From a virus, in the IMG/VR virus record IMGVR_UViG_3300020180_000010, positions 1-64,000 of that record: 64,000 nucleotides of DNA, one strand, 5' to 3'. Shown here one piece after another: positions 1,763-48,403 of the stretch. The number at the start of each line of letters is the position of its first letter. Position 1 is the stretch's first letter. Made by a program: the position numbers and the translations under genes. The notes below the pieces were generated by a model. It was not told the DNA's origin. It did no database searches and was given only the letters and a program-made list of their open reading frames with translations.

Positions 1763-1980
1763 AAACTTATTTTGATATACAGTTGGAGTCAAGATTGCCC
1801 GCGACTATCAAATATAGGATTCTGGCCGAGTCTCCTCAAGAAGCCCTTCAGATGCTCTTGAAGGGAACTATCAATCCGATAGAAGTAAAATATAAACTAA
1901 ATGCCCGGCGCGACATCAAAGCAACCATCTACGCTGCCGGAAGCAATTTAGTAAAACTGGTCAAGCACTTTATAAGATGA
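1759..1980 (+). CDS. hypothetical protein
   Basis: AAGGA RBS, ATGA overlaps. Confidence 0.7.
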   Translation: MKTYFDIQLESRLPATIKYRILAESPQEALQMLLKGTINPIEVKYKLNARRDIKATIYAAGSNLVKLVKHFIR

Positions 1981-2285
1981 TCCGGATATCGGTAGATCTG
2001 GCCTGGTGTGACATGAGTAATAATGAGCATAAATTCTTAGTAACGGATTGTAGGTCAGAGAAGCCAGTCTACACTTCTGTTTATATTAATTTTGATACAA
2101 GGGTTCCTCTGGATTGTGGGAAAATAGCAGCTATATATTATATTTTTCCAGAAGATAAAGAAGAGCTGATTTACCAATACTGTGTAGAAAATAGTATTGA
2201 TTTTACTATTCTTGAAGAATTCGCTATGATTCCGGAATTTGCTGATTTATTTTTACGATTAAAACGTTTTAGTCCCTTAGCATGA
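1977..2285 (+). CDS. hypothetical protein with shared C-terminal motif (RFSPLA)
   Basis: 102 aa ORF, ATGA-coupled. Confidence 0.7.
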   Translation: MIRISVDLAWCDMSNNEHKFLVTDCRSEKPVYTSVYINFDTRVPLDCGKIAAIYYIFPEDKEELIYQYCVENSIDFTILEEFAMIPEFADLFLRLKRFSPLA

Positions 2286-2294
2286 AAGTTAACC

Positions 2295-2918
2295 ATGAGC
2301 TTACAATATTACGTCTTGGATTCCGAAACTAATGGATTGAAATGCGGGTTTCATGAACTGACAGAAATTTGCTGTATAAGAGTCCAGGATCGTATGCAAT
2401 TAGCACGAAACATCATTGCTAAATATCCTGAACGATCCAGCCTTCAAGCATTACAGATAACTGGTAAGACCATGGCTGATCTTCAGTACGGCCACCCGCA
2501 GCATCAAGTCGTGATGGATTTTAATAAGTTTTTTGAGTCAGATGGATTGACTCCCGACCATAGATGTATAATCGCACACAATGCTTTGTTTGATAGGAAA
2601 TTTCTTCATAACCTATGGTCTCAAAATAATATAAGATTTCCGGCAGCCCTGTGGGTCGACACGATTCCTATCGTCAGGACAATATTTAAAAACGAAGGCA
2701 TGGTAAAACCCAAGACAAATCTTACCGATACTTGTAACAATTTAGGAATAAAAAAGGTTGCCGGGACTCACAATGCCGTTTCTGACGCACGTAACCTTTA
2801 TTTCGTATGGGAAAAGGTAAAGGAGCGAGTGGATCATTTAGAATATATTAAACCGTATCCTCATCTATTAAGCTCCGATACTACGACTGATCAATCAGAA
2901 GAAATCGACCATGAATAA
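2295..2918 (+). CDS. DEDDh 3'-5' exonuclease (DnaQ-like)
   Basis: LDSETNG, AHNALFD, HNAVSD motifs. Confidence 0.9.
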   Translation: MSLQYYVLDSETNGLKCGFHELTEICCIRVQDRMQLARNIIAKYPERSSLQALQITGKTMADLQYGHPQHQVVMDFNKFFESDGLTPDHRCIIAHNALFDRKFLHNLWSQNNIRFPAALWVDTIPIVRTIFKNEGMVKPKTNLTDTCNNLGIKKVAGTHNAVSDARNLYFVWEKVKERVDHLEYIKPYPHLLSSDTTTDQSEEIDHE

Positions 2919-3285
2919 TATCATTTATGGTTTAACGTCTCTATTATGTTATAGTTTGATTATGGAGTTAGGGAAAGATCTTAATCTAAAGCAAAATTTT
3001 AAATTCTTTACAATGCACGCATTATCGCTAATCGTAATGCTCGTTGGATCGTTTGTCTTGTACAGTTCATTAAAAGTCTACGCTATATGCGGATGTTTAT
3101 CTGTAATGTGGGGATGTTTCGAGCTTCTCTATCATAATAAATCAAAAGAAACCGCGACACATATGTTCGTAACTTTACTTCTTGTTTGGTTTTTCTGGGC
3201 GCCATGCGCAGCGTTCATTATATTTTTTAATTCTTATTTTAAAGAATATAGTGAGCGTTATATTCAGAATAAACCACCAACGTGA
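2911..3285 (+). CDS. multi-pass membrane protein
   Basis: About four hydrophobic segments. Confidence 0.7.
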   Translation: MNNIIYGLTSLLCYSLIMELGKDLNLKQNFKFFTMHALSLIVMLVGSFVLYSSLKVYAICGCLSVMWGCFELLYHNKSKETATHMFVTLLLVWFFWAPCAAFIIFFNSYFKEYSERYIQNKPPT

Positions 3286-3940
3286 CGTTAGGGTGGTTGT
3301 TTTGTTAAAACAAACGATCGAAGCATTCTATATAAAATACAAAGGATATTTGGAAACAGTACAGGCCTATACTATGGAATCTGGCCTCGCAGATGTCATG
3401 CAGGCATGTCGTATGAAGCCTCTAAATCATTATATTTCGCCTCTTCCGGTTTCTGCCAGGCTTGAACGGCATTGGTGTGATGAATCACGTTGTTCGATCC
3501 TTATAAAGAAGAGAAAAATTAAAACCGTACAGAATGATTTATCCGTTCCGGCAAATATCAGTACCACGGATATGTTTTGTAATTTATCTATATTTGATTT
3601 GCCTAAAATTAGCCAATCCGTATATATAGGTGTGGGTACGGATGAGTCAGACCGACATGTATTCATATTATCTTTTTTAGGAGATGATATGTTTATTAGA
3701 TCCCGATTATACGTTGATGGGAATTGGCAGAAGGTTTCGCCGATCGTTATGACGATACCTTTGGTTCGGGAGCTGCTCCGGGGAGACCGTCATAATGCTT
3801 CGATCGTTGGTAATGAATCTACCGTGCCGGATTTGCCATTTATTTGGCAATATCAATATACCGTGCCGATTCCGATACCCGATGAATTCAAAGCCACGAT
3901 AATGTCAAGTTTTCCGTTTTTATTTCGTTACTTATGTTAA
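3182..3940 (+). CDS. hypothetical protein (true start probably near 3293-3302)
   Basis: Long ORF; its 5' part overlaps the upstream gene. Confidence 0.7.
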   Translation: MFGFSGRHAQRSLYFLILILKNIVSVIFRINHQRDVRVVVLLKQTIEAFYIKYKGYLETVQAYTMESGLADVMQACRMKPLNHYISPLPVSARLERHWCDESRCSILIKKRKIKTVQNDLSVPANISTTDMFCNLSIFDLPKISQSVYIGVGTDESDRHVFILSFLGDDMFIRSRLYVDGNWQKVSPIVMTIPLVRELLRGDRHNASIVGNESTVPDLPFIWQYQYTVPIPIPDEFKATIMSSFPFLFRYLC

Positions 3941-3959
3941 AATTTAAGGAGATTCTGGT

Positions 3960-4181: not shown

Positions 4182-4184
4182 TTC

Positions 4185-5112: not shown

Positions 5113-6480
5113 TCACGACGCCCATGTCAGGCGATCCGTACTTGCGAATGCGCGGCACCGCCGGATGACGCAGTTTATCTGTTCCACGGCTCCGGACTGG
5201 TAGCGCTGCCACATCGAGAGATTCGAGTCGGTATTCGCGACGTTGCCGAAAGTTCCCGCAGCCCACGTTCCGAGCGTGGTCACTGAACCCTTGTTGACGC
5301 GGACCTTGAGCGCCGCGGACTTAGCCACGTTTCCGGCCTCGACCCACACCTCGACGAGGTCGTACTCGTTCCACGACGGGAAGTTGGTCGGGCACGTCAC
5401 CGACACGCCCCCCACGTTGAACGTGGCGACCATCGTCGCCATGTTGACCTTGAGGGCTGCGCTAGCCACTCCGTCGATGACTTCAAAGATGGTCTTGGTG
5501 CCGCTCGAAAAGGCGGAGCGCGGCGCGAGCATCCACGCCTCGAACGACATACGCAGGTGCCCGCTCGGAATCCACGAGTTGGGGTTCATGCCTCCCGGGT
5601 TGAAGCGGAACGCTTCGGGGTCGCGCGTGTTCGAGGCGCCGGTGGTCGGAATCGGCGAGACGCTATGCCATTGGGATACCTCGACCATGAAGGCGTCCAT
5701 GATGACCGTACCGATCGCCGCGTTGAAGAAGTGTCCCTGGTTGAAGTTGGTACCGGGTGACGAGACGGGCCCGCCGCGGTACTTCGCCCACGCTGTCGAC
5801 AAAGCGCCTCCGAGGTACAGGACGTTCATGAACGACGTGCCGCCGCCAGCCGGTAGTGTCCCGGAGGGTGTCCGGTGCCAAACGGACGCGAAGATCGAAG
5901 ACGAGTTCACGCCGAAGAAATCGAGCTTGGAGTAGCTACCGAGGTTCGCGAAGCTGACCTGGCGCGAGTTAGTCCCGTCACCGAGCAGGCTGATGCCTGA
6001 GTCCGCGTACGTGTCGCCACCACCGCCAGCATTGCCGAGCAGGTCGAAGCGCGTCGAGCGCGTGAAGTAGTTGGTACTCGTCGCCTCAAGGATCATTCCG
6101 ACGAGGCGGTCGCCGTTGTAGTCTAGTACCGGCATCGAACCAAGACGCAGTAGCCCAGGCGACATGCCTCCTCCAAAGAATACGTTGTTCGATATTCCCG
6201 CATAAGGCAGATAGCACTTACCTCCTCCTTGCGTCGATGCGTACCAAGGCGACGTGTTATTAGCGCCAGCGTAGGAGCCGCTGATACCTGCCGCGTATCC
6301 AGGCGTGCCGAGGTACGGGTGGAAGTCGAAGAGCGGTGTAGGATCTCCAAATGAGTGAGTCCGCGCACCCATTCCCATTCCACTCGGGGAACACTGGATT
6401 CGTGCCATCGCAGCCATCGCAGCCGGTCCATTTAGAATTCTATTCACGTACGCACCGACCAGCGAATCTCCGATTGCCAA
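5113..6480 (-). CDS. virion fibre/spike protein, head-spike-fibre/lectin-like, GC-rich (start probably a downstream ATG)
   Basis: GMILEATSTN and SPIPTTGASNTRDPE resemble the GLLIE..TN and SYIPT....TRxxD motifs of phage spike fibres; 63% GC in 5281-5340. Confidence 0.6.
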   Translation of the reverse strand: MAIGDSLVGAYVNRILNGPAAMAAMARIQCSPSGMGMGARTHSFGDPTPLFDFHPYLGTPGYAAGISGSYAGANNTSPWYASTQGGGKCYLPYAGISNNVFFGGGMSPGLLRLGSMPVLDYNGDRLVGMILEATSTNYFTRSTRFDLLGNAGGGGDTYADSGISLLGDGTNSRQVSFANLGSYSKLDFFGVNSSSIFASVWHRTPSGTLPAGGGTSFMNVLYLGGALSTAWAKYRGGPVSSPGTNFNQGHFFNAAIGTVIMDAFMVEVSQWHSVSPIPTTGASNTRDPEAFRFNPGGMNPNSWIPSGHLRMSFEAWMLAPRSAFSSGTKTIFEVIDGVASAALKVNMATMVATFNVGGVSVTCPTNFPSWNEYDLVEVWVEAGNVAKSAALKVRVNKGSVTTLGTWAAGTFGNVANTDSNLSMWQRYQSGAVEQINCVIRRCRAFASTDRLTWAS

Positions 6481-7484
6481 TTGATAGTCGTCGCGGCGAC
6501 GCCCGTAACTACGAATTCAATTGTAACGTTATCTCCGTTGAGTTGGAAGGCTGTGCTGTAGCCCGCGACACTTACGTGCGAGACTGTCAGCGCTGGTGCT
6601 ACTTTTACCGTTGTGGTGCCGCCGTGACGCTCGTAAGCTACCTTGTATTCGGCCCAGAAGAGATCTCCCGTCGCGACGTTGAAACCCTGAATGATGCCGT
6701 AGGCTGTTATGCTCTGGCCGTTCGTGAGAACGAGAGAGTCAATGACACCGGGCGTCGCGTTAGTAGTTTGAGCAGTTTTGTGGCGCGAGCGAATGCGGGA
6801 GTTGCCGCTGCTTTGGTTCCAGTCGGTCTCGGACGACGAGAGGATAACGATGCCGCTTGATCCGGTGATGGTTGTTACGACGTTCGCCGCCGTAGTTCCG
6901 GTGACGTCTCCAGTAAGGGTCTGGGCAGCTTGATTGGCAGTCGGTAAGATACCTGTTACGTAGTTAGCTCCACCGGCAAGATTGATAGATGACCAGGATG
7001 GAGAGGTCCCGGCTGAAAGGGTATTTCCGGTGGTTCCGGAAGCCAAACGTACCCAATTCGTTCCGTTGAAATAAATTATATCGCCAGCAGCCTGACTTGA
7101 AATACTCAAATCAATAGGGTATCCCCATGATGGATTGGCTCCGGTTCCACCCGTGATAAGTGCTTTGCCTAAAGTACCGGCAGGCAGCCTCGTCCATACG
7201 GTTCCGTTAAAATAAAATACATCTCCCTGAGCTTCTCCCGATACCTCAAAAGCTGATGCCGCGGCAACTGTCCAGTTGCTATTGTCGATTCCACCGACTA
7301 ATTGATACATGGTTGTGCTGGACCGAACCCAAGCCAGCATCCCATCTTCTCTAAAATAATCAGGTAAAGCATTCCGAGCAGTCAAATCCGCAACAGAATG
7401 AAGTCCGCCTTTTATATCTGATTGCCGGGCCTGTTCAAACGGACCACCCGGAGCAACGGTTCCACCGAGAACAATATCACTCAT
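6444..7484 (-). CDS. virion fibre protein, paralog of the N-terminus of 27265..31059
   Basis: VADLTARNALP..R..GML.WV motif; QGDVFYFNGTVW and AGDIIYFNGTNW repeats; NLAGGANYVTG linker. Confidence 0.7.
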   Translation of the reverse strand: MSDIVLGGTVAPGGPFEQARQSDIKGGLHSVADLTARNALPDYFREDGMLAWVRSSTTMYQLVGGIDNSNWTVAAASAFEVSGEAQGDVFYFNGTVWTRLPAGTLGKALITGGTGANPSWGYPIDLSISSQAAGDIIYFNGTNWVRLASGTTGNTLSAGTSPSWSSINLAGGANYVTGILPTANQAAQTLTGDVTGTTAANVVTTITGSSGIVILSSSETDWNQSSGNSRIRSRHKTAQTTNATPGVIDSLVLTNGQSITAYGIIQGFNVATGDLFWAEYKVAYERHGGTTTVKVAPALTVSHVSVAGYSTAFQLNGDNVTIEFVVTGVAATTINWQSEIRWSVRT

Positions 7485-8956
7485 TAGCTTACCGTTATTG
7501 TGAATGTAGATGTGAGTAAATTATCTGATCGCCATACATCGTAACTCCTAGTTACACCGTTTCTAGTTATCTGCACTGTTGTGGTGAGGGTGAACGGGAT
7601 AACGAATCCTGTGATCGCATCCTTTATCAATACAGTGCCGGAATTATATTGAGAATGCGAAGGCCAGAGAAAATTTACATATTGAGTCGCAGGACTGAAA
7701 GTCCTTGTCTGACCCCTACCGGTTTGTAATGAATCGCTGAATCCAGATTGCAACGTAACATTAAACACATCTGTACCACTAACGATAGAAGTACTCTTTA
7801 CTCCATAGTAAACATCACTCGTCCATTGTATTGTCCAGGAAGCATTCCTGGTGAATGGAGTACTGAAAGCACTAAGAGTAGCCGTGACGGTTGGATCCGC
7901 GCCTTCTGCCGAAGGATACTGTGTGCCGTTTCGTTTTATTGATCCGGCGAGTGTCGCCGCGGTATACGCGGAAGGAGTGACGCTCCACGAACCAGGGCCG
8001 ATATCTCCCGGATCAGTAGATCCGCCGTAAGTATTGGCAGCACTGGCTGTGGTGGGCGGGCCCGAAACATATGCGGCGGTGGCGGTGATCCCGGTAACAG
8101 TATCGCCTCTCCTATAAAGGAGAGTTCCGCCATCTGGAGATGATTTTCCCCAGGAAGTAATAGCAAAATCAGGATCAATATCAGCTTGTCTGAGACGTCT
8201 TGATCGGCGGTTCGATGCCGGGTCCTCTACTATTACGGCTCCAGCTATAGCGGCTCGGCCCGGGACCATTATTTCTATCGAGATGGCAGTCACGCCTACT
8301 ACGACGGTTCCGATGCTAGTATAATTTAGAAGTGCCCCGGCGTTAATGGTTCCTTCGGATACCGATACAAAGAAACCAGGAGTAAAATCAGTCGGAATGG
8401 AAAGGTCAGGGGTTCGGGTCCAGGCTCCTGAGGAGGCTATCCAGATTCCATTTTCTGCCGGAAGGGTTTGATTCATCGCCACGACCCTGTCACCCGTTAC
8501 CGTAGTGACGGAATCAACCGTAACGAGACCAGAAAGGCTTAGATTTGTAGTAGATGCGAGTCTTGCTATGTTTTTAACAGCAGTATAGTTATCCTGGGGA
8601 CCCCAGGCAGACCCATCCCAACTTAATGATTGGCCAATTATTGGCAAAGTATCCAGAACAGGTCTTCCCTGCAACCCTACAACAATTTGATTTATGGTAT
8701 TACCGTTTAAATCAGTACCGGGAGTAAAAAAACTACCAGTTCCGCCGGTTGCGATAGTTATGAACTGTTCTATATGATCTAGCCTGTTTCGAACAGTCGA
8801 GTATACAGAACTTGGTTTTACGCCTAATTCTGCTTCCACCGCCACGATAGCATCACGCAGAACATTTACTAATGCCGCGTCGACTGAACTAACCAGATTA
8901 ACTACATCTGGTAAAGATGCCGATGAATCAATGCCGTTGGGATAGATAGTGCTCAA
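7484..8956 (-). CDS. virion structural protein, paralog of 31061..32332
   Basis: Shared YP..D..LP.V, ELGVKPSSVYSTVRNRLD, NQIVVGLQ.RPV and C-terminal RSDN motifs. Confidence 0.75.
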   Translation of the reverse strand: MSTIYPNGIDSSASLPDVVNLVSSVDAALVNVLRDAIVAVEAELGVKPSSVYSTVRNRLDHIEQFITIATGGTGSFFTPGTDLNGNTINQIVVGLQGRPVLDTLPIIGQSLSWDGSAWGPQDNYTAVKNIARLASTTNLSLSGLVTVDSVTTVTGDRVVAMNQTLPAENGIWIASSGAWTRTPDLSIPTDFTPGFFVSVSEGTINAGALLNYTSIGTVVVGVTAISIEIMVPGRAAIAGAVIVEDPASNRRSRRLRQADIDPDFAITSWGKSSPDGGTLLYRRGDTVTGITATAAYVSGPPTTASAANTYGGSTDPGDIGPGSWSVTPSAYTAATLAGSIKRNGTQYPSAEGADPTVTATLSAFSTPFTRNASWTIQWTSDVYYGVKSTSIVSGTDVFNVTLQSGFSDSLQTGRGQTRTFSPATQYVNFLWPSHSQYNSGTVLIKDAITGFVIPFTLTTTVQITRNGVTRSYDVWRSDNLLTSTFTITVS

Positions 8957-8971
8957 TTCATTATTATTTTA

Positions 8972-8979
8972 AATTATGC
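8972..8979 (-). promoter_or_regulatory. candidate late-promoter element GCATAATT
   Basis: Same 8-mer lies 15-16 nt upstream of the first gene of both fibre cassettes (also 32349..32356). Confidence 0.4.
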
Positions 8980-8992
8980 CTGTATAACATAA

Positions 8993-9769
8993 TCAAAACA
9001 ATAGATCCGGAACGCGTGTCGGTACCCAAATATCATGAGTTGTATCCCAATCTATATAACTACTGTCGACCCAAACGTGGCCATTATTAGCCCAGGTCGA
9101 CCCCCAAGAATTTCTAATCCAGTATTGCCGTGTACCGTTTGTATGCCGGTATCCAGTAATGATCATTGCGTGAAGGCCATCATAATGGTCTGGTCTTGAA
9201 AAGACTTGATTCGGAAAGGCATTTTGAAAAGACTTTCCGACTCCAGTTGCAAAAACAACCGGATGTTGTGCTGAAAGAGCCGTTTCGATATCATTCAGTC
9301 TATCATTGCCGTTTGAGTCGATTCGGTAAAAATCCTCAATAGTATTATCATTGGCAGTTTTATAAGCAGATAAAGAAGGTTGAACAAATACCTTCATCGG
9401 GTCATATGGCCACGCGTCCTCTGGACATATCCCGAGACGTTTTAATGAATCGAATGCATTATGAATGTATGTTCCGTTATCTTGATCAGTTTGCTTATTG
9501 TACATCCTAGAATTCCAATATAGAAACATCCTGGAAAGCTGAACAACTGGCCTTCCTTCCAGTCCTAACAGGATCTCCAACGCGTCACTCGTTGCGTTAC
9601 AAACACAACTACCAATCTGATACTGATTACTAATTGGTGTCGATTCATTCAGAATGACTTCATTCTGAACCGTTGCTCCGGCTTGTTTTAATAATGGTGA
9701 CGATATACTTTTGAATGACTTATATGTAAGTCCGGGTGGGGAAGGCAGATATCCTGATGTTTTAAACAT
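8993..9769 (-). CDS. papain-like C1 cysteine peptidase
   Basis: NQYQIGSCVCNA, GLHAMIITGY, IRNSWG catalytic motifs. Confidence 0.92.
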   Translation of the reverse strand: MFKTSGYLPSPPGLTYKSFKSISSPLLKQAGATVQNEVILNESTPISNQYQIGSCVCNATSDALEILLGLEGRPVVQLSRMFLYWNSRMYNKQTDQDNGTYIHNAFDSLKRLGICPEDAWPYDPMKVFVQPSLSAYKTANDNTIEDFYRIDSNGNDRLNDIETALSAQHPVVFATGVGKSFQNAFPNQVFSRPDHYDGLHAMIITGYRHTNGTRQYWIRNSWGSTWANNGHVWVDSSYIDWDTTHDIWVPTRVPDLLF

Positions 9770-9774
9770 TTATT

Positions 9775-10104
9775 TTATTTCTTGTAATTAGATGAATAGG
9801 CGGGGCAAATACCAGTCGTGGTGACGGTATCGATTTGATCGCAATTAGTTATGATGGATAAACATTTTGGATAAACAGAAACTCCATTATCTTGGGTTTC
9901 GCGACAAAATTGCGCAAAAGACTTTCCACGTTTTGTCGGGTTGCCCAGCTCACAACGTAGATCATTAAGGTTCTTTTGTGCTGCTTCGCAATATTCCTGA
10001 TCCCGCACGATCGGCGTCGGGATAGGTCCGATAGGGCTGGAATTATTATGATTGCCAGCGCAATTAGGAAGTAATATTAAAAACAATAAAATTCTACATA
10101 TCAT
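9775..10104 (-). CDS. Cys-rich putative lipoprotein
   Basis: Internal start MICRILLFLILLPNC-AG gives a signal peptide with lipobox-like Cys. Confidence 0.65.
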   Translation of the reverse strand: MICRILLFLILLPNCAGNHNNSSPIGPIPTPIVRDQEYCEAAQKNLNDLRCELGNPTKRGKSFAQFCRETQDNGVSVYPKCLSIITNCDQIDTVTTTGICPAYSSNYKK

Positions 10105-10216
10105 CCGACACCCTAACTCTATAGAATAAAAATCATATTTTATCTTTTGAATGAATTGTCGAGAAGAATACCCTACGGCCAAGGCATTTGGAATGAAATC
10201 GTAGAATTCAGGAGAA

Positions 10217-10470
10217 TTGTACAGAACCGGCATCACAACAGGCTCCAAGCCTGTATTGGGAGGAGTATATAGTTTTTACGAAACTCATGGCCTTCCTTTG
10301 GACATATTGGTTGGGTTCCGGATTGGCTAGATATTTATGTCCAAGCCAAACAAGCTGGAATGAAACATAAAAGAATTGTTTCAAAAATGGAAGAAGCCAT
10401 ACAAGACTCTTTCGGAGCCGTGACTGCACAACACGTTACATTGGTTTTAAACGAGAAATTCGGAGAATAG
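10217..10470 (+). pseudogene. frameshifted small gene with an AlaRS-like FYETHGLPLD motif
   Basis: Frame A LYRTGITTGSKPVLGGVYSFYETHGLPLDIL; the -1 frame continues GWVPDWLDIY...KFGE* and ends 1 nt before the vWA start. Confidence 0.5.
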
Positions 10471-13640: not shown

Positions 13641-14494
13641 TGTATGTTCTGCAAGATTTTGATGATAGTTTAGAGCGGATTATTAATCATGGCATTAGAA
13701 AACCCAACCGAACCGGTATCGATACCGTAAGTTCGTTTGGCCTACATTGTAGGTACATGATAGGTGACGCTTTCCCTATACCGACTAAACGTAGAACTGT
13801 TTATAAATCTATTTTTGCCGAATTGCTATGGATGATATCGGGTTCGACAGATGTCAATGACCTTGAAAAAATGGGAAGCAGAATCTGGACTGCTTGGCGC
13901 GATTCTGAATTTGAAAAGAGAAACGGTTACGATGCAGGTGAACTAGGCCCGATCTATGGCTGGAGTTTTCGCCATTTTGGTGCTCCGTATTCCTCACGAA
14001 AAGGACCCGCTGGAGGTGCGGACCAGGTTCAATACATAATTGATGAATTGAATCGAGACAGATTCTCCCGAAGAGCCCTGATAAATCTTTGGGATCCGAA
14101 CGTCATGACGACAGATCAGGTAAAACTTCCGACTTGTCATTATAGCTTTCAGGTTCTACTGGATACTCAGGATCGTTTAACCGGAATCCTGACTCAACGT
14201 TCAGGTGATTGGTTGCCAGGAGTCAGTGCAAATATCTATTTCTATTCGGCTCTCATGTACATGTTTGCGCAACAATTAAACGCAACTCCGTATGAACTGA
14301 TTCATAATGTCGCGGATGCACATGTATATGTTAATCAATTTGATGCGGCGAGAGAATATCTATCGAGACCCGCAATCGATTCACCAAAATTAATACTTAA
14401 TAAAGCAAAATCGATATTTGATTACAAACTAGAAGATTTTGTTATCCAGGATTATTTCCCTGGAGAAAAAATTACAGTTCCGGTGGCGGTTTAA
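13640..14494 (+). CDS. thyA: thymidylate synthase
   Basis: NRTG, ELLW, LGPIYG, SRR, LPTCH, QRSGD...N, DAHVY. Confidence 0.95.
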   Translation: MYVLQDFDDSLERIINHGIRKPNRTGIDTVSSFGLHCRYMIGDAFPIPTKRRTVYKSIFAELLWMISGSTDVNDLEKMGSRIWTAWRDSEFEKRNGYDAGELGPIYGWSFRHFGAPYSSRKGPAGGADQVQYIIDELNRDRFSRRALINLWDPNVMTTDQVKLPTCHYSFQVLLDTQDRLTGILTQRSGDWLPGVSANIYFYSALMYMFAQQLNATPYELIHNVADAHVYVNQFDAAREYLSRPAIDSPKLILNKAKSIFDYKLEDFVIQDYFPGEKITVPVAV

Positions 14495-14760
14495 TGAAAA
14501 GTAAATCTGTTTATGTGAACGGCCTTTTAAGACGAAAAGGATCTCAACCTTATCATGACTATAGCGAAGTGGATGGAGAAATAATTTTTCGATTTAAAAT
14601 AAAAAGATCAGATGAGGTTACGTTTCATCATTACCGAGACGGTATTCTTCATTATGAAGAAATTATAGATGTGTACGATACTCCGCCCGGCACTCCTATC
14701 AGAATTGCGAATCGTTACGTTAATAATCATGTAGATGATAAATTAATGAATTTAATATAA
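14494..14760 (+). CDS. hypothetical protein with shared C-terminal motif (KLMNLI)
   Basis: 88 aa ORF coupled to the thyA stop. Confidence 0.65.
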   Translation: MKSKSVYVNGLLRRKGSQPYHDYSEVDGEIIFRFKIKRSDEVTFHHYRDGILHYEEIIDVYDTPPGTPIRIANRYVNNHVDDKLMNLI

Positions 14761-14799: not shown

Positions 14800-14839
14800 G
14801 AACCCAGAGAGGGTTCTATAATTGGCACACGGAGAGTGT
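14800..14839 (+). promoter_or_regulatory. twin-hairpin leader, copy 1
   Basis: GAACCC-AGAGA-GGGTTC then ACAC-GGAGA-GTGT just before ATG 14843. Confidence 0.7.
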
Positions 14840-14842
14840 ATT

Positions 14843-15844
14843 ATGAGTTATACATTTCAGTATTGCGTTTGTATTGGTCGTTTTCAGCCATTCCATAATG
14901 GCCACCATGAGTTGGTCAGGGAGGCTTTGAGTCAAGCCGAGACTGTTTTGATTGTTATCGGGAGTACTGATAAGGCCCCGAACATTCAAAACCCTTGGAC
15001 AGCGGATCAGCGCGAGGCGATGATTCTTTCGGCCCTGACGGATCAAGAGAAGGAACGAGTCAAATTCGTTCAAGTTCGTGATTTCTGGTATACTCAGAAC
15101 CGTTGGTTAACGGAAGTCCAGCGGCGCGTATACGATGCTACGGATGGCATTGATGATGATAAAATTTGCGATGTTGGAGAAGTAAGTTATTTTCCTCAGT
15201 GGAAATTCTTCAAGATGCGCAACATCGATAGAATGCCACACGCGACTACGATTCGCGATCTTTACTTTACCATGGATAATGCTTATAAAAACCATGTCAG
15301 TCCAGGCGTGGTGAATTATCTTGAAGAATTCAAAAAGACTGTTTCCTTTAAAAACTTGAAGGAAGAGTATGAGCATATCCGGAACTACCGGGCAGCCTGG
15401 ACCGGAGCACCGTTCCCTCCGACATTCGTTACAGTTGACTCCGTAGTTATCCGGAGCGGGCACGTCCTGACGGTCCGCCGTAAGGGGAATCCTGGTCGTG
15501 GTTTGATTGCTCTTCCGGGCGGTTTTTTAAACCAGAATGAAACGATTCTAGATGGTGCGCTCCGGGAATTGAAGGAAGAAACTGGTATAAAAGTCTCAAA
15601 GGAAGAATTGGAAAAGGCTGTGATTGAATCGAAGGTGTTTGATTATCCTGACCGATCCCTTAGAGGCCGGACCATCACCCATGCTTATTTAATTGATCTC
15701 GGTAGTGGAAACCTTCCACTTGTCAAGGGATCCGATGATGCCGATAAGGCATGGTGGATGTCTTTGAGCGATTTCTATACTATAGAAGATAGATTTTTTG
15801 AAGACCATTGGCAGATCATATCATATTTCTGTAGCAGATTCTGA
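14843..15844 (+). CDS. nadM: bifunctional NMN adenylyltransferase / Nudix hydrolase (NadM-Nudix, NatV-like)
   Basis: GRFQPFHNGH, NPWT, Nudix box GG...ET...GALRELKEETG, GSDDA, FEDH. Confidence 0.95.
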   Translation: MSYTFQYCVCIGRFQPFHNGHHELVREALSQAETVLIVIGSTDKAPNIQNPWTADQREAMILSALTDQEKERVKFVQVRDFWYTQNRWLTEVQRRVYDATDGIDDDKICDVGEVSYFPQWKFFKMRNIDRMPHATTIRDLYFTMDNAYKNHVSPGVVNYLEEFKKTVSFKNLKEEYEHIRNYRAAWTGAPFPPTFVTVDSVVIRSGHVLTVRRKGNPGRGLIALPGGFLNQNETILDGALRELKEETGIKVSKEELEKAVIESKVFDYPDRSLRGRTITHAYLIDLGSGNLPLVKGSDDADKAWWMSLSDFYTIEDRFFEDHWQIISYFCSRF

Positions 15845-15892
15845 TCTATCTTGTGCAGATGTTTTGGTTAATGTAAGGCAAGTCTTTTTAAA

Positions 15893-15933
15893 TCTTCCCA
15901 GTGAGGGAAGAGTCTGAATAATACGGAGAGTAT
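15893..15933 (+). promoter_or_regulatory. twin-hairpin leader, copy 2
   Basis: TCTTCCC-AGTGA-GGGAAGA then ATAC-GGAGA-GTAT just before ATG 15935. Confidence 0.7.
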
Positions 15934-15934
15934 C

Positions 15935-17860: not shown

Positions 17861-18295
17861 ATGTCTTTTGCATTGGTTCCGATAGAATATGAATCGGTAA
17901 TATATTATACCGATACCTCTCGAAACCTTATTTCCATATTTGTTTCGGCAAACATAAAGCAAATTCAGGAGAGCCGAATCATTATGTCGATCGCGCCTCC
18001 TAATCCACATTCACTTCCTGATGACTTGGTAAGTTGCTACGTTGGAAATTATGTCGAGACCGTTAGAAACGAAGATACAGCCATTGCTATTTTTGCATCT
18101 TACGTATTGAATGATTTATGGGTTGGTAAAAAGTTCAAAGATGATTCCCCTATCGTTATAGAAAATATAACATTTTCATTATCTGGCGCGAAACATTATA
18201 TCGATCCTAACTGTATAGAGCATAATAAAGCTAAATTTGTACAGAAGTACAATGAGATTCACAGAAAAATAGAAAGGTTATTGGCTCTGGCATGA
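17861..18295 (+). CDS. hypothetical protein with shared C-terminal motif (RLLALA)
   Basis: ATG 17861 avoids overlap with the deaminase; ATGA-coupled to folA. Confidence 0.7.
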   Translation: MSFALVPIEYESVIYYTDTSRNLISIFVSANIKQIQESRIIMSIAPPNPHSLPDDLVSCYVGNYVETVRNEDTAIAIFASYVLNDLWVGKKFKDDSPIVIENITFSLSGAKHYIDPNCIEHNKAKFVQKYNEIHRKIERLLALA

Positions 18296-18795: not shown

Positions 18796-19194
18796 GTGGC
18801 TATGAAGGACCGGATGTTCATTCAATCTTCTAATGGTTTAGTGTTTCGTTTGGGTCATGATAACGTTGTTTCGATGTCATCACGTGAAGTGCCTAATTGC
18901 TTGACATTCGAGCTTAACGAAATCCCTACAATTCAATTCAGGCCAGACGGAAGTTTTGACGTACTGTCTTCGCTGAGAGATGCCGCGGAATGTCTTTTCT
19001 GGGCCGCCATGCACCTAAAAGCATCGATGGATGATCGTACAGAGCTTGATCAATCGATCTGGATATTTGTTGGACAGCATCATCTGATGCTTTTTGAATC
19101 CGAACGGCCGTACTGGTCAGGGATCGAAACGGATCAGCTTGATCAAGTATTTGGATTGGTTGAGTCGTTCTGGAAACTAAAAAATATAAAATAA
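18796..19194 (+). CDS. hypothetical protein with shared C-terminal motif (KLKNIK)
   Basis: 132 aa ORF. Confidence 0.7.
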   Translation: MAMKDRMFIQSSNGLVFRLGHDNVVSMSSREVPNCLTFELNEIPTIQFRPDGSFDVLSSLRDAAECLFWAAMHLKASMDDRTELDQSIWIFVGQHHLMLFESERPYWSGIETDQLDQVFGLVESFWKLKNIK

Positions 19195-32377: not shown

Positions 32378-32761
32378 CTATTCTAAATATTGAAATCTTT
32401 TATATTGATCGAATCTATCAACAATTTCTGTATCAGAATTTGCTGCCAACATCACTACATAACTACTATTAACAATTCCTTCTGTATCTGAAGGCGTAAA
32501 TAGTGACGAATAGATATATTTATCTTTATTTCTATCAATGAATCCCAGAATAACTTGTTTTAATTTAGGATCATCATAATTAATAGTCATGCTCCAGACA
32601 TCCATAATGATGGCCGGGAACATATTCATTATAGACTGGAAAGAAGGCTTTACTCTGAATAGAGATTCACTAATTTCATTAGAAAATTTTATTTTTCCAG
32701 TATCGTAGAGATTCCAAGCATCAAATTCACTTAGATCCAAATAATTCTTGATATTGCTCAC
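32378..32761 (-). CDS. hypothetical protein with shared C-terminal motif (RFQYLE)
   Basis: 127 aa AT-rich ORF. Confidence 0.7.
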   Translation of the reverse strand: MSNIKNYLDLSEFDAWNLYDTGKIKFSNEISESLFRVKPSFQSIMNMFPAIIMDVWSMTINYDDPKLKQVILGFIDRNKDKYIYSSLFTPSDTEGIVNSSYVVMLAANSDTEIVDRFDQYKRFQYLE

Positions 32762-36571: not shown

Positions 36572-36861
36572 TTACGTGATTGATCGGTATCTGGAGCAAT
36601 AAAATTCATTATGACGTATTATTGACGGTTCTGTATCCGTCGCGGCATCCATAACACTAATAATGTAAAAAGGTACGCTGGTCCGACCTAAATAATATAC
36701 CCTTGTTTCTATTTCGCTATTTATGAAAAATGGCTCACAATCCTTTTCTTTACATGAAAAGTCGCGATTGTTTTTATTACTTGAATGTTATTTTTTAGAC
36801 TGTCATGTAGATTTATATTGTCCTGAACAATATTAGATTGCTTTAATGCATAAACGTCCAT
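36572..36861 (-). pseudogene. frameshifted hypothetical gene ending in the shared motif (RYRSIT)
   Basis: ATG overlaps the upstream TAA; 46 codons in one frame, with the -1 frame open 36787..36572; one added base restores about 96 aa. Confidence 0.5.
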
Positions 36862-37229
36862 TATAGTAGATTTTTGTATTTTAAACAATAAGTCGTATTA
36901 GGATTTATAAGGAATTTCTGGTATCCATAAGTATTTGCTATAAGAATTTTAGACGAATGATTATGTGCAGAACTATACAACCAATACAAATATTTTTGTA
37001 TTAGCCCAGAAAATGAATATCTAACTAAAAAGATCAAATTATCAGATTTGCAATAAGATGAAGCTATAAACGATGTACTTTCTTCGTTTGCTTCAAAATC
37101 CCAGACACTTGCTTCAAAATCCCAGACACTTATTTCGTGACCGTATTCTTTAATAATTTCAGAAAATTTCTCCAGAGCAATATTTAGACCAGGGTATTTA
37201 TTATTATTCACCATCCACGGCCTATCCAC
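36861..37229 (-). CDS. hypothetical protein with shared C-terminal motif (KYKNLL)
   Basis: 122 aa AT-rich ORF with an SVWDFEA duplication. Confidence 0.65.
   Translation of the reverse strand: MDRPWMVNNNKYPGLNIALEKFSEIIKEYGHEISVWDFEASVWDFEANEESTSFIASSYCKSDNLIFLVRYSFSGLIQKYLYWLYSSAHNHSSKILIANTYGYQKFLINPNTTYCLKYKNLL
37088..37131. repeat. 21-bp exact tandem duplication
   Basis: TTGCTTCAAAATCCCAGACAC x2. Confidence 0.9.
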
Positions 37230-42546: not shown

Positions 42547-43176
42547 TTACCAAATTGGAATCATTTTTATCAAACGGAGAAATTCTTCATTATTAGAACA
42601 ATTTATTATTTTGCCATGGTAAAACCATTCTTCTGTACCATGGTAAAACCATTCTTCTGTACCGCTGGCATATTCGCAAGCTGGTCCATCTTCTCGATGA
42701 CGTTTGCCATTGAGATACCAGCGTTTAGTGCCATCGGCATATTCAATAGCAGGCCCGTCTTCTCTATGAAGATTGCCATTGAGATACCAATGTTTATCGC
42801 AATTAACATATTCAACAGCCGGACCATCTTCTCTATGAAGTTCACCATCAAGATACCATTTTTTAATACCATTATCAAATTCAATAGCTGGTCCATCTTC
42901 TCTATGAATCTCACCATTCCGATACCATATTTTAGTACCATGGGCATATTCGCAAGCAGGCCCATCTTCTCTATGAAGATTGCCATTGAGATACCAATGT
43001 TTATCGCCATTAACATATTCAACAGCCGGTCCATCTTCTCGATGAAGCTTGCAGTTTAAACACCATTTTTTAGTACCATCGGCATATTCGCAAGCTGGTC
43101 CATCTTCTCTATGAAGCTCACCATTTAGATACCAATGTTTATCGCCATTGGCATGTTCGACAATTTTTATTGACAT
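42547..43176 (-). CDS. HREDGPA 23-aa repeat protein (MORN-variant/YwqK-like)
   Basis: 7 HREDGPA units; tail NEEFLRLIKMIPIW; 24-bp duplication at 42614..42663. Confidence 0.85.
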   Translation of the reverse strand: MSIKIVEHANGDKHWYLNGELHREDGPACEYADGTKKWCLNCKLHREDGPAVEYVNGDKHWYLNGNLHREDGPACEYAHGTKIWYRNGEIHREDGPAIEFDNGIKKWYLDGELHREDGPAVEYVNCDKHWYLNGNLHREDGPAIEYADGTKRWYLNGKRHREDGPACEYASGTEEWFYHGTEEWFYHGKIINCSNNEEFLRLIKMIPIW

Positions 43177-43185: not shown

Positions 43186-43359
43186 TTATTTTAAATGAAG
43201 ATTTTTCCCGATCATTATGAATTCAATATCCTGTGACCAATTCTTTTTAATGAATTGTTTATATTTCTCAGAAATTACTTCAAACGTAACGAATACTTTG
43301 CCAGTATTTTCATCCGTTTCCACACGAATCGCCTGAGCAACGGTTTCGTATTCTGACAT
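43186..43359 (-). CDS. small hypothetical protein (57 aa, not in ORF track)
   Basis: MSEYETVAQAIRVE...NLHLK; TGATG-coupled to dnaB. Confidence 0.65.
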   Translation of the reverse strand: MSEYETVAQAIRVETDENTGKVFVTFEVISEKYKQFIKKNWSQDIEFIMIGKNLHLK

Positions 43360-44741
43360 CAGAATATTTCTCCCGAGATATCATCAGCTCCTGATATTTC
43401 TCCGGCGTCATCTTGAGGATCATTCTGAAGTCCACAGCAAGCGAAATTCTTAATCAATCTACCTCGTACATTCTCACCGTCACGGTTTTTAATGATATGT
43501 ACGATCATGTCGGGATGCATATTCTCTTCTGGACGCTTTTCAATCTGAAGCGCAACATTTGCGTTCTGAATAATTAATGCAGATCTGCCGATCCTATGGG
43601 CACCGATTTTATCATCTTGAGCCGTATCTTTTCCTTTTTGCATACGATTCAGCTGGACCGCGCTCAACACACATACATTGTAAACACGTGCGAATTCATG
43701 AAGCGAGCCTGATATGGCTCCAAGCTTCAGCCAATCATCCATATCCCCATGGTGTTCCATGAGTCCCAAATAATCCACTACCACAACATCAGGATGGAAT
43801 CTTGCCTTTACATCATTGAAAATTGTTTCGATGCCCTCAATAGTCGCGCCACGCGGAATATCAACGATCTCAAATTCATTCGGGTAACGTTTGATAAATG
43901 CCAATGCCTGACGGACCCGCTCATGCTGGTCTTTTGTCAGAGTACCGTCACGTATCGATCTATACGGAACATCTGCAAGCCTCGAAACAATGCGATTCAA
44001 ACATTGTTCATAAGGCATTTCTAAGGAGAAAAATAGAATATTGTATCCGGTTTTGAATTCAGTGCTACTGATAGTATTTTGCTGTAGCCACATCTGGATG
44101 GCAAAATTCATCAGGAGCATGCTTTTACCGCTCCCGCTTTCGCCCGCTACCAGGAAAAGCTCCGCAGGTCTCAATCCATTTGTTTGGAAATCTAGAAAAT
44201 TATAACCCGTAAGTATCCCTCTACCAAAATTCGGGTCTCTCTGCTTGGCAGAGTAACGATCAACGAAATCCTTAATCGAGTCCTTGAGAGTCTTTTGATT
44301 AAAAGGACTACTTTTGTATAAAGTCTTGATTTTTTCAGTAACGGAATGGATCGCGCTGAGATTTTTTAACGGATCCCCATGAAGTTTTTCATCACTGAAT
44401 ACATTGTCACGCAGCGATAGGAGAAGAGATTCAGCATAACGATCTTTTATTTGCTTCAGATCATGTTTGAATTCTTTATCATTGAGCGGAACCGATTCAA
44501 CCGCAGTCCAGGTTTGTTTTAGATAATCTGCTCTTTGCTGATTATCTTGCCCAGTAAACTCAATCAGAGTACGGAGGGTCGGAAGATCTTTGTAAACTTT
44601 GATATATTGACATACCTGCTTTGCAAAGAGGTACGTATCGGTCTGAAAAACGAACTCTCCGCATTCAGATATGAATTCCGACGCGTTCTTTTTATTCGAA
44701 ATAAGTGTCGCGAGGATCCTTAAATCAAGCTGATCAGTCAT
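43359..44741 (-). CDS. dnaB: DnaB-like replicative helicase
   Basis: TGY..LD, GESGSGKS, FSLEM, VDYLGL, QLNR, KNRDG. Confidence 0.93.
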   Translation of the reverse strand: MTDQLDLRILATLISNKKNASEFISECGEFVFQTDTYLFAKQVCQYIKVYKDLPTLRTLIEFTGQDNQQRADYLKQTWTAVESVPLNDKEFKHDLKQIKDRYAESLLLSLRDNVFSDEKLHGDPLKNLSAIHSVTEKIKTLYKSSPFNQKTLKDSIKDFVDRYSAKQRDPNFGRGILTGYNFLDFQTNGLRPAELFLVAGESGSGKSMLLMNFAIQMWLQQNTISSTEFKTGYNILFFSLEMPYEQCLNRIVSRLADVPYRSIRDGTLTKDQHERVRQALAFIKRYPNEFEIVDIPRGATIEGIETIFNDVKARFHPDVVVVDYLGLMEHHGDMDDWLKLGAISGSLHEFARVYNVCVLSAVQLNRMQKGKDTAQDDKIGAHRIGRSALIIQNANVALQIEKRPEENMHPDMIVHIIKNRDGENVRGRLIKNFACCGLQNDPQDDAGEISGADDISGEIF

Positions 44742-44949: not shown

Positions 44950-45450
44950 TTACCAAATTGGAATCATTTTTATCAAACGGAGAAATTCTTCATTATTAGA
45001 ACAATTTATTATTTTGCCATGGTAATACCATTGTGTAGCGCCATACTTATGGTCAATAGCTGGTCCGTCCTCTCTATGAAATTTACCTTCAAAAAACCAT
45101 TCTTTGTCACCATTGGCATATTCAACAGCTGGACCATCTTCTCTATGACGCCTACCATTTAGATACCAATATTTGCTACCATCGATATATTCGCAAGCTG
45201 GTCCATCTTCTCTATGAAGCTCACAATTTAGATACCAATGTTTATCGCCATTATACAGTTCAATGGCCGGTCCGTCTTCTCGATGACGTTTGCCGTTCAG
45301 ATACCAGCGTTTAGTGCCATCGGCATATTCAATAGCAGGCCCATCTTCTCTATGAAGTTGACTATTTAGATACCAATATTTGCTACCATCGACTCTTTCA
45401 AATAGCTGACTGCTGCTGCTACTACTTTTATCTTTTCTATGAAGTTTCAT
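44950..45450 (-). CDS. HREDGPA repeat protein
   Basis: 5 units; last 76 bp identical to 42547..42622. Confidence 0.85.
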   Translation of the reverse strand: MKLHRKDKSSSSSSQLFERVDGSKYWYLNSQLHREDGPAIEYADGTKRWYLNGKRHREDGPAIELYNGDKHWYLNCELHREDGPACEYIDGSKYWYLNGRRHREDGPAVEYANGDKEWFFEGKFHREDGPAIDHKYGATQWYYHGKIINCSNNEEFLRLIKMIPIW

Positions 45451-46785: not shown

Positions 46786-47381
46786 TTAAGTTTCTCCAAT
46801 ATTGAAAAATCAAAGCCAAGAGCCTTTAATTTTTGACATGCTTCTAAATATTTAGGATCGGCTCCATCATCCTGAGCCGCCATAACTAAAAAAGCCAAGC
46901 TTCCGTAGGTTTCACAGCTAGGAAGATTTAGATTCGATAATGCTTCCAAACACGGTGGTGGAAGAAAAGAGTCACGCCGGACTTCTTTCCTGGCCATGTA
47001 TTTAAATTTGAAATCTGTAATGAAAATATTATTGGCCAGAAAACCTATCGCGGTGATACGTTTATTCGTTCCGACAATTTTCGTATCGAAGATCCAATCA
47101 ATATATTCTTTCAAGGTTACGGGATCCGTACTGAGGGACGCGGCGACTCGACTCAATTGATACACTTCATAAGATTTTGACGGAGCCGCGTTAAACTTGA
47201 ACGAATAATCAACTCCATATTGATCTTTATATCGCTTGACGAAATAACCAATCAGATGGGCGGCCTTCCATTTAGAAGGTTCTAATGTATTAATTTCAGA
47301 GAATTTATCAAAGAATTTTTTGTAATGAATGGAAGGTGTAGAAGTGAAGTCCGCGTCATCTGCATTAGATTTCTTTTTCAT
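46782..47381 (-). CDS. hypothetical protein, possible replication initiator
   Basis: Helical protein upstream of the loader and helicase; function inferred from position only. Confidence 0.6.
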   Translation of the reverse strand: MKKKSNADDADFTSTPSIHYKKFFDKFSEINTLEPSKWKAAHLIGYFVKRYKDQYGVDYSFKFNAAPSKSYEVYQLSRVAASLSTDPVTLKEYIDWIFDTKIVGTNKRITAIGFLANNIFITDFKFKYMARKEVRRDSFLPPPCLEALSNLNLPSCETYGSLAFLVMAAQDDGADPKYLEACQKLKALGFDFSILEKLK

Positions 47382-47444
47382 TTAAATAATTTCTATACGT
47401 TAAAATAGCACGGTGAGACGCTTGAAGTCGAAGAGATCATAACT

Positions 47445-47984
47445 TCACCAAATTGCTATCATTTTTATCAGGCGGGTGAATTCTTCATTATCAAAACAAT
47501 TTATTTCGTTTCCATTCAGAAACCATTGTTTATGACCATTAACATATTCAACAGCCGGACCATCTTCTCGATGACGTTTACCGTTTTGGTACCAAAATTT
47601 GTTACCATCGATATATTCGCAAGCTGGTCCATCTTCTCGATGATGAATGCCATTCAGATACCACTCTTTACCACCTTTGTAATTTTCAATGGCCGGTCCG
47701 TCTTCTCGATGACGTTTGCCATTGAGATACCAATGTTTATCGCCATTAACATATTCAACTCGATGAAGCCTACCATTTAGATACCAATATTTGCTACCAT
47801 CGACATATTCGCAAGCTGGTCCATCTTCTCTATGAAGATTGCCATTGAGACACCAATGTTTATCGCCATTAACATATTCAACAGCCGGACCATCTTCTCG
47901 ATGAAGCCTACCATTTAGATACCAATGTTTATCGCCATTGACAAATTCAACACTCGGGTCTTCATGTTTATAAAATAAATTCAT
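47445..47984 (-). CDS. HREDGPA repeat protein
   Basis: 5 full units plus one with a 15-bp deletion; tail NEEFTRLIKMIAIW. Confidence 0.85.
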   Translation of the reverse strand: MNLFYKHEDPSVEFVNGDKHWYLNGRLHREDGPAVEYVNGDKHWCLNGNLHREDGPACEYVDGSKYWYLNGRLHRVEYVNGDKHWYLNGKRHREDGPAIENYKGGKEWYLNGIHHREDGPACEYIDGNKFWYQNGKRHREDGPAVEYVNGHKQWFLNGNEINCFDNEEFTRLIKMIAIW

Positions 47985-48010
47985 TATTGTATAGATTTAT
48001 TTATTTTTTA

Positions 48011-48403
48011 CTAAACAATACTGATAAGTTTTTCATAATCCTGTGGTACATGACGTTGTATTAGAGGTCCGGCGTTATAAATGATAATTTTATCAGAATT
48101 CAATAATTCAAATGTTGATTCGGCATTTTCTGCAAAAACCACCGGCATACCATAAATATATTGCCATGACAAATACCATGGATACATAATAGAAATTATT
48201 GTTTCGTGCCCAAATGTTATATTATTTAGACTTAAAACCCTAAGAGATTCCATTGAGTTTAGAGGATATTTCTTGTAAGATACAAATAAACTTTTATTAT
48301 CAGTATAGGTACGGTGATAGTCTGATATGAATTCATATTCATCGATAAGCTCGGCACCTCTGGCAAACATTTTGGTAAGAAAAATTATTTTTTCTTGTTC
48401 CAC
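48011..48403 (-). CDS. hypothetical protein with shared C-terminal motif (KLISIV)
   Basis: 130 aa AT-rich ORF. Confidence 0.65.
   Translation of the reverse strand: MEQEKIIFLTKMFARGAELIDEYEFISDYHRTYTDNKSLFVSYKKYPLNSMESLRVLSLNNITFGHETIISIMYPWYLSWQYIYGMPVVFAENAESTFELLNSDKIIIYNAGPLIQRHVPQDYEKLISIV

Follow-up and report, generated by a model that had tools for sequence, protein, structure and literature searches.

Why should many small and otherwise unrelated phage proteins end in one shared hexapeptide? The question is raised by the viral record IMGVR_UViG_3300020180_000010, the first 64 kb of which (the window) was analyzed here within the entire record of 124,347 bases. On proteins encoded between positions 1977 and 48403, an initial annotation had noticed C-terminal residues [KR] at -6, [LMFY] at -5 and [LI] at -2 (-1 being the last residue), and had proposed a portable tag read by one receptor, with capsid loading as its first example. 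We report that the tag is real, undescribed and far larger than the initial annotation could see, and that it may well be a docking motif for a common reader.

The record, 29% complete according to CheckV, is a fragment of a phage-G-like jumbo phage (hereafter the record phage). Its head protein (record 120684-121475) shares 83-84% identity with those of the uncultivated relatives described below and 52% with its counterpart in Bacillus phage G, which is the closest relative in culture; no closer relative was found in the metagenome collection, the best hit being 64% on a partial match. For all counts we used our own gene set covering the entire record (128 genes, 82 of them within the window), which was built from the greedily chosen longest open reading frames (ORFs) with strand-block curation, five small spurious ORFs being taken out and five missed genes added.

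Terminal hexapeptide in the record phage

The pattern [KR][LMFY]..[LI].$ ($, chain end) matches 10 of the 128 C-termini, against 0.37 expected from its internal rate (115 of 39,232 positions), in line with the earlier estimate of less than one chance match and with the anticipated enrichment at C-termini over internal positions. When two of the three HREDGPA paralogues, which are MORN-type repeat proteins, are dropped, 8 of 126 termini still match (Poisson log10 p = -8.5). The register proved to be as fixed as had been claimed, with 8 matches having one residue after [LI] and the 29 other offsets giving only 0-3 apiece, and in column shuffles of the real termini the number 8 was never reached in 20,000 trials (mean 1.26, maximum 7). 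As the annotation had also stated, no recognizable enzyme or virion protein is tagged.

Several trivial origins of the pattern were ruled out. Composition or AT-richness does not account for it, the internal rate in small proteins being the same (0.0028) and the last 24 nucleotides being 61% AT versus 60% in whole genes. A general habit of helix-ended proteins is excluded by 2,772 distinct C-termini from 101 other viral loci, in which the pattern occurs nine times at the tag offset, the same as at other offsets. Hidden homology among the carriers was rejected as well: apart from the HREDGPA paralogues, the protein bodies are unrelated, as had been described, no pair being linked by blastp at E < 0.2.

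To correct for post-hoc definition, 3-position patterns were searched exhaustively across 55 residue classes, with sets of internal hexamers as control, and 3 of 300 control sets gave an equally good pattern after the fact. With a 4-letter alphabet, the 4-position version (8 versus 0.62 expected) lay near the 1% tail of the controls. The strongest overall C-terminal signal in this phage is a plain excess of K + R, and an expectation-maximization mixture-model motif search, which was overfitted, recovered only the broad K/R-rich C-terminal class. Judged from the record genome alone, the tag is suggestive rather than proven.

A stronger form of the tag in related phages

Five relatives, G001-G003 (complete; the first 400 kb of each fetched) and G004 and G005 (partial; 200 kb each), carry the same tag in the same register, with the consensus h-x-[KR]-h-x-K-[LM]-K-A-F-x-stop (h, hydrophobic; x, any residue). 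Most informative is G002, a 448-kb relative with 671 genes and 126,216 residues, in which [KR]h..h.$ stands on 81 of the 671 termini, compared with some 7-24 for other offsets; the same tails account for another peak, at offset 4. The broad form of the tag, [KRNQE][LIMF]..F.$, occurs on 83/671 termini in G002, 17/624 in G003, 12/552 in G001, 7/263 in G004 and 13/228 in G005. Between -11 and -1 the logo reads h, x, K/R (78%), h, x, K (81%) or N, L (81%), K (69%), A (59%) or V/S, F, and mostly I/L/W, with the form [KR][LI]x[KN]Lx[IVAM]F[SLT] in G004 and G005. The comparison with these relatives settles the matter, confirming that the tag is real and that it is far stronger in them than in the record phage.

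Outside these phages the tag is sparse. K[LM]..F.$ ends 5 of 2,518 genes in 80 unrelated viral loci, two of which, on other jumbo contigs, look like true tags, and a collection-wide scan for a DNA pattern of one fixed codon choice, hence of low yield, returned 75 stretches and three further contigs with 2-4 tags. No cultivated member bears the tag, K[LMI]..F.$ being present on 0 of 740 termini of Bacillus phage G. The 740 C-termini of phage G (loci L297-L321) are enriched in patterns of their own, [KNR]x[FL]x[KNR]$ (24 versus 3.7 expected) and hydrophobic (-6)/charged (-4)/[KNR] (-1) (47 versus 11.7 expected), which could be another dialect or just K-rich ends.

Correspondence between the two forms

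The form found in the record phage, h-x-[KR]-h-x-[KR]-[LMF]-x-x-[LI]-x-COOH, differs from that of the relatives in the manner of a dialect: F stands at -2 in each of the five relatives, as against L or I in 8/8 independent carriers of the record phage, where the broad F-type tag is found on 0/128 termini. The two dialects meet in orthologous genes. The MORN-type gene at 42547-43176 is the positional orthologue of a tagged MORN-type gene in the relatives, which follows DnaB and a 57-aa gene, and the two tails align without gaps (..EEFEKLLKLKAFW in the relatives and ..EEFLRLIKMIPIW in the record phage) with the same switch from F to L/I at -2. Similarly, the slot after the UvsW-like helicase is occupied by a tagged ORFan in both, ending in KLKSFM in G002 (115 aa) and in KLISIV in the record phage.

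An independent matrix of 11 columns, trained on G002 only and scored against 38,464 internal 11-mers of the record phage, placed six record-phage termini (four independent) above the 99.9th percentile versus 0.13 expected (p ~1e-5). By this matrix, the MORN paralogues and the ORFans at 18796 and 17861 are strong members, those at 48011 and 14494 good, that at 1977 moderate, and those at 36861 and 32378 weak.

The evidence obtained so far must be weighed against a number of observations that speak against the tag in the record phage. The pattern was defined after the fact, and in one test with the 4-letter alphabet the bare version '+h..h.' (9 versus 1.33 expected) was equalled by 80 of 500 control sets; the motif is looser here, with R or K at -6 and without K-A at -4/-3, and its -2 residue differs from that of every relative; the seven non-repeat carriers have no homologue (blastp against G001-G005; collections); and three carriers (36861, 32378 and 1977) reach only the 92nd-97th percentile. 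Most of these points, and the generally K/R-rich C-termini of this phage, speak for a reading in which only the MORN-family tail would be real here, by descent, and the other seven matches, none with F at -2 and none with an orthologue, would be a chance pattern recognized post hoc. We consider this improbable, as the independent G002 matrix recovers 18796, 17780 (the open frame of the 17861 ORFan), 48011 and 14494 at or above the 99.15th percentile; three non-MORN termini (four independent ones in all) exceed the 99.9th percentile versus the 0.13 expected; the register is sharp; and the matches are confined to ORFans (7/38 versus 3/90, the three being the MORN paralogues), as in the relatives.

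Constraint on the encoded peptide and its position

Among 65 tags of G002, K occupies -6 in 64 and F occupies -2 in 64, and their coding is free. Leucine is written in six codons, lysine as AAA 49 times and AAG 15 times, and alanine as GCA (15), GCT (11), GCC (7) and GCG (5), proportions near genomic usage; in the record phage, likewise, R is encoded by CGT, AGG and AGA, and L by TTA, CTG and CTA. Replacements in G002 are L/M/I, A/V/S and K/N/R, all three stop codons occur, and nothing is conserved after the stop. A DNA-level signal (promoter, terminator, a palindrome such as AAAGCTTT, or translational coupling) was therefore rejected, because synonymous codons vary freely, substitutions are conservative, the sequence after the stop is unconserved, and at a convergent junction (19194), too, a gene terminates in the tag. 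Type IX secretion system C-terminal domains, core peptides of ribosomally synthesized and post-translationally modified peptides, and nascent-peptide effects were set aside informally, on account of the lack of signal peptides and modifying enzymes and of the use of all three stops.

The position is constrained as strictly as the residues: of 45 instances of K[LM]K[AVSCIG]F among the 126,216 residues of G002, 43 are followed by a single residue and then the stop. The last residue itself varies (I, L, T, W, K, S). Hydrophobic residues recur at -11, -8, -5 and -2/-1, flanked by lysines, and no acidic cleavage position is conserved upstream of the tag between -24 and -12.

Proteins that carry the tail

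When the last 12 residues were removed, 97 carriers fell into 76 blastp clusters, with architectures that include MORN-type repeats, N-terminal zinc ribbons, a 158-aa alpha/beta fold and a 348-aa protein. For 20 carriers tested from the relatives, no convincing Pfam or PHROG family was obtained, only a sub-threshold DUF2310 and one PHROG of unknown function. The 158-aa family (A1) has 59 homologues, all unnamed; its model, a confident one (pLDDT, the predicted local distance difference test score, 84.5), has no match in the PDB at E <= 0.001 in a fold search and shows the tail as a short helix after a proline. In an alignment of 37 sequences of this family (30-83% identity), three of the six invariant columns lie in the tail (L151, L154 and F157), which is the best-conserved part of the family, and three further orthologue groups also retain the tag; homologues do keep the motif at the terminus. 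Both outcomes by which the initial annotation would have seen its tag refuted from sequence, a lack of terminal enrichment and loss of the motif from homologues, have thus turned out in favor of the tag.

Tagged proteins are soluble, with mildly acidic bodies: a membrane-like segment is predicted in 0 of 74 tagged small G002 proteins versus 38 of 307 untagged ones (Fisher p = 3e-4). The tag is found on 68 of 380 lineage-specific genes of G002 versus 15 of 291 conserved genes. The HREDGPA/MORN-type family, the only carrier family common to G002 and the record phage, is expanded in G002 to at least 11 members (e.g., 43200-44062, 67453, 118904 and 149235), all of them tailed, ten in the F-type form and one ending in KLKLLW.

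The clustering of the carriers bears on an explanation that dispenses with a reader, in which they would form one hidden superfamily, explosively diverged through tandem duplication, and the tail would be its best-kept structural element, e.g., a dimerization helix. Indeed, 46 of the 83 tagged G002 genes have a tagged neighbor, many stand in tandem arrays within which weak family links are seen, and sizes cluster near 100 aa (median 100). However, the architectures are clearly different and the bodies fall into the 76 clusters mentioned above, a structural helix need not end exactly one residue from the stop, and the tail is preceded by a proline or linker in several families; we consequently hold common descent to be an unlikely source of the tail.

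Candidate readers of the tail

In the reading that we propose, a short linear motif of ~11 residues, genetically encoded at the C-terminus, has the hexapeptide as its core, and phage-G-like jumbo phages would attach this motif to soluble, fast-evolving, mostly lineage-specific accessory proteins. The motif would form a short basic-hydrophobic helix at the extreme end of the chain, through which the carriers may dock onto a single shared reader able to sense the free C-terminus as well. To this explanation as a whole, derived from sequence comparison, we assign a probability of about 0.55, whereas the existence of one common reader, taken by itself, is very probable. The original proposal of a portable tag read by one receptor is in agreement with the relatives, the synonymous codons, the fixed position, the orthologues and the dialects, but capsid loading is, if anything, disfavored.

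Since the distance to the chain end is fixed and K, L and F are near-invariant, a specific carboxylate-sensing pocket appears preferable to lipid binding. Amphipathic C-terminal membrane-targeting helices, as in MinD and FtsA, are nevertheless a known device, being terminal, basic-hydrophobic and about 10 residues long on soluble proteins, and the tail might similarly place soluble accessory proteins on a membrane or a phage-built structure. The short terminal helix after a proline in the model, the lysine-flanked hydrophobics at -11, -8, -5 and -2/-1, and the mutual exclusion of tag and transmembrane segments (0/74 versus 38/307) are all compatible with this, as is, for a compartment, the tubulin homologue at 52094-53452. 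Helices of the MinD and FtsA kind, however, tolerate much sequence variation, and lipid binding should allow K/R exchange, other aromatics and register shifts, in contrast to the K (64/65), F (64/65) and end distance (43/45) found in G002; a compartment signal, moreover, should mark the core replication and transcription enzymes, which are without the tag. Membrane or compartment targeting is therefore a doubtful alternative. The tubulin homologue (minus strand) is PhuZ/tubulin-like (phrog_4733, E = 1e-9) and 60-65% identical in 5/5 relatives, and the phage-G-like clade thus carries a tubulin though it is not a chimallivirus by anything seen.

Loading into the capsid, in which the tail would dock the carriers on the scaffold or on the interior of the HK97-fold shell so that an arsenal is packaged and co-injected, has two precedents. 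According to work on T-even internal proteins (PMC3012670), diverse, fast-evolving small phage proteins have only a short terminal tag in common, the capsid-targeting sequence (CTS), which in T4 is read by one assembly partner; and, as described for encapsulins (PMC7355545), a short conserved C-terminal peptide on unrelated cargo suffices for docking to an HK97-fold shell. A conserved docking surface is available, the major head protein being 83-84% identical across the phages. The CTS, however, is N-terminal, targets its proteins to the scaffolding core and is cleaved off by the prohead protease, whereas the present tag is strictly C-terminal (43 of 45 cores one residue before the stop) and has no conserved cleavage site upstream (no acidic position between -24 and -12). 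The tag resembles encapsulin peptides in being a conserved C-terminal peptide on unrelated proteins and differs from them in being basic-hydrophobic, with an invariant Phe in the relatives. Encapsulin cargo genes share the operon of the shell, whereas the carriers here are scattered over 1977-48403, far from the head gene at record 120684-121475, in early or metabolic operons, those of nucleotide metabolism and replication, where some overlap, stop to start, with the genes of ThyA, DHFR and the UvsW-like helicase. The mostly acidic bodies (net charge -3 to -15 in 9 of the 10 record-phage carriers) would suit DNA-filled heads poorly, and 83 cargo species in one phage would be unprecedented. We regard capsid loading as unlikely.

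Returning to a docking tail, the most likely single identity of its reader, tentative as it is, would be an AAA+ unfoldase with a ClpP protease; the tag may then be a degron timing the clearance of early accessory proteins, or the docking tail of adaptors. This protease handle is ranked first because of the ClpP/AAA cluster in the relatives, the features pointing to a specific pocket, and the absence of enzymes and virion proteins from the carriers, which lie in operons with early or middle metabolic genes. Each of the three complete relatives encodes two tandem ClpP genes (E 1e-45 to 1e-50), within a cluster conserved in G001-G003 (G002:C1:221802-231135) that also comprises a 463-aa protein, a DUF192 protein, an FtsK-like ATPase, a topoisomerase and a YjoB/VAT-like classic AAA ATPase. 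The last of these has more than 1,300 homologues at E <= 1e-10, with 74-90% identity among the 120 matches listed. It is established that AAA+ proteases recognize chains at their very C-terminus, and that a short terminal segment behind a flexible region lets adaptors dock (bioRxiv 10.1101/2022.11.06.515074); a jumbo-phage survey discusses ClpP and ClpS as anti-host tools (PMC7824862).

Several results weigh against the docking reading, and in particular against its protease version. No reader was identified among the S41 proteases (PF03572, 0/5 records), PDZ domains (PF13180, one sub-threshold match in five records and none consistent) or DnaN-type and gp45-type clamps (PF02768 and PF09116, no match in five records) that were searched for. 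Bacillus phage G has ClpP (E = 1e-61) yet no tagged terminus (0/740), so that ClpP and the tag do not occur hand in hand. The 29%-complete fragment available of the record phage lacks the ClpP cluster; no ClpX-type zinc-finger unfoldase was found, only weak AAA_2 matches; and natural degrons are usually loose, whereas the phage tag is nearly invariant. Co-folding of the N-domain of the AAA ATPase (residues 1-205) with the 158-aa carrier family gave a score of 0.00 in a single job without controls, which speaks neither for nor against the reading.

Degrons and adaptor tails of AAA+ proteases (ssrA, the MuA-type ClpX motif, the SspB tail) resemble the tag in occupying the extreme C-terminus, and the relatives encode ClpP pairs and AAA+ ATPases. 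The sequence of the tag is a different one, however, it is found on about one gene in eight, and no ClpX-type N-domain was found alongside it. Unlike ssrA, which is added by tmRNA and whose non-polar end (ALAA type) is bound in the ClpX channel, the tag is encoded in the genes; its last residue varies, and only 2 of the 10 record-phage carriers end in LA. As to an SspB-type adaptor tail, a short terminal peptide docking on the N-domain of the unfoldase, the tail of family A1 is a short helix after a proline, and no ClpX-type protein was found, only the weak AAA_2 matches. PDZ or tail-specific protease ligands, which end in a conserved hydrophobic residue, are not matched by a tag with a variable last residue, and the beta-clamp-binding motif (QL[S/D]LF type), which like K-L-K-A-F has Leu as its second and Phe as its fifth residue, has a defining Gln that is replaced here by K or N, the carriers not being recognizable DNA enzymes. 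The tag can thus be likened to the CTS, encapsulin peptides, degrons or adaptor tails, and clamp motifs, and it fails a defining feature of each.

In poxviruses, the ankyrin/PRANC families share a C-terminal box that docks to a ligase, and a counterpart in bacterial viruses can be proposed. The tagged proteins would be plug-in adaptors, the variable bodies of which (MORN repeats, zinc ribbons, new folds) grip different host or rival-phage proteins while the tail plugs into ClpP/AAA+ or another hub, leading to destruction of host defense proteins in the manner of proteolysis-targeting chimeras, with a code readable from sequence and shifting in step per lineage. This extension is speculative and, in our estimation, rather improbable.

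Full-text literature searches on the core peptide and on jumbo-phage C-terminal motifs and MORN repeats, with supplementary files outside their scope, found no description of the tag, and the comparative jumbo-phage survey (PMC7824862) does not contain the terms 'C-terminal motif', 'degron' or 'MORN'. If there is one reader, approximately one gene in eight of some 450-kb phages would belong to a single undescribed pathway whose members can be listed from sequence, which would open a way into the 'dark matter' ORFans of giant phages. Two further gains would be a short portable peptide with which to steer proteins during infection, and an instance of a tag and its reader shifting together between lineages (F versus L/I at -2).

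Individual carriers in the record phage

Three carriers are HREDGPA/MORN-type repeat proteins encoded on the minus strand: one of 209 aa (42547..43176), ending in KMIPIW and scoring at the 99.97th percentile of the matrix; a paralogue of 166 aa (44950..45450) with the identical tail and the same percentile; and one of 179 aa (47445..47984), whose tail KMIAIW is the top terminus (rank 1 of 128). They score 44.7, 29.2 and 31.2 bits for PF20530 (DUF6745), above the cut-off of 27. A fourth paralogue, truncated at the contig end, is represented by its C-terminal piece at 1..85 on the plus strand (tail ..EEFIRIVPMIAIL), which ends in PMIAIL, with P for K at -6.

The seven non-repeat carriers have no Pfam or PHROG family. 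On the plus strand, an ORFan of 132 aa (18796..19194; KLKNIK, 99.99th percentile) closes the strand block after DHFR, no downstream gene being coupled to its end, and retrieved only itself among 5.8 billion proteins. Another of ~144 aa (17861..18295, the open frame extending from 17780; RLLALA, 99.97th percentile), with no match in the five relatives, lies between the dCMP deaminase and DHFR genes, its stop overlapping the DHFR start. The start of a third, of 88 aa (14494..14760; KLMNLI, 99.15th percentile), overlaps the thymidylate synthase stop. The moderate member of 102 aa (1977..2285) ends in ..FLRLKRFSPLA, resembling the MORN-family FLRLIKMIPIW, and scores at the 97.2nd percentile, or at the 99.26th without positions -4 to -2.

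On the minus strand, an ORFan of 130 aa (48011..48403; KLISIV, 99.80th percentile) lies directly downstream of the UvsW-like helicase. The two weak members, of 122 aa (36861..37229; KYKNLL, 93.3rd percentile, rank 35 without -4 to -2) and 127 aa (32378..32761; RFQYLE, 92.0th percentile, 97.1st without -4 to -2), may both be chance matches. All the termini listed in the initial annotation read as written except RYRSIT (36572..36861, minus strand), the end of the last short frame in a 290-base stretch that no single open frame spans; the frame that opens at 36861 runs to HFS-stop, no ORF of at least 40 aa ends at 36572, and membership depends on an assumed frameshift.

Genomic surroundings

Besides the carriers, the window encodes thymidylate synthase, a NadM-Nudix/NAMPT pair, dCMP deaminase, DHFR, GMP reductase, an RNase T-like exonuclease, PhoH, RNA ligase, DnaB, RNR, an M24 peptidase and the PhuZ-like tubulin. 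The gene at 48385-49881, previously taken for dnaB, encodes instead the UvsW-like helicase (54-58% identity to counterparts in 200-480 kb uncultivated phages), and DnaB is encoded at 43359-44741. The M24 (methionine-aminopeptidase-type) peptidase (33429-34253, minus strand) has 56-59% identity in 5/5 relatives.

The NadM-Nudix and NAMPT genes for NAD salvage (14822-17344, plus strand) recur, with protein identities of up to 79%, on many viral contigs that are non-syntenic in other respects (80 loci kept of 174 found), and the pair looks like a widely exchanged cassette. A block of ~5 kb (5113-10429, minus strand), with ~50% G+C versus ~40% elsewhere and on the strand opposite to its neighbors, has the look of a foreign insertion; the relatives lack homologues of most of its ORFs, though not of 6444-7484 and 7484-8956. 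At the end of the window, a giant ORF of 2,309 aa (61320-64000, continuing to record 68249; minus strand) is followed by ORFs of 1,267, 1,614, 1,441 and 1,636 aa, and these genes of the structural half are all conserved, with 34-60% identity to their counterparts in the relatives.

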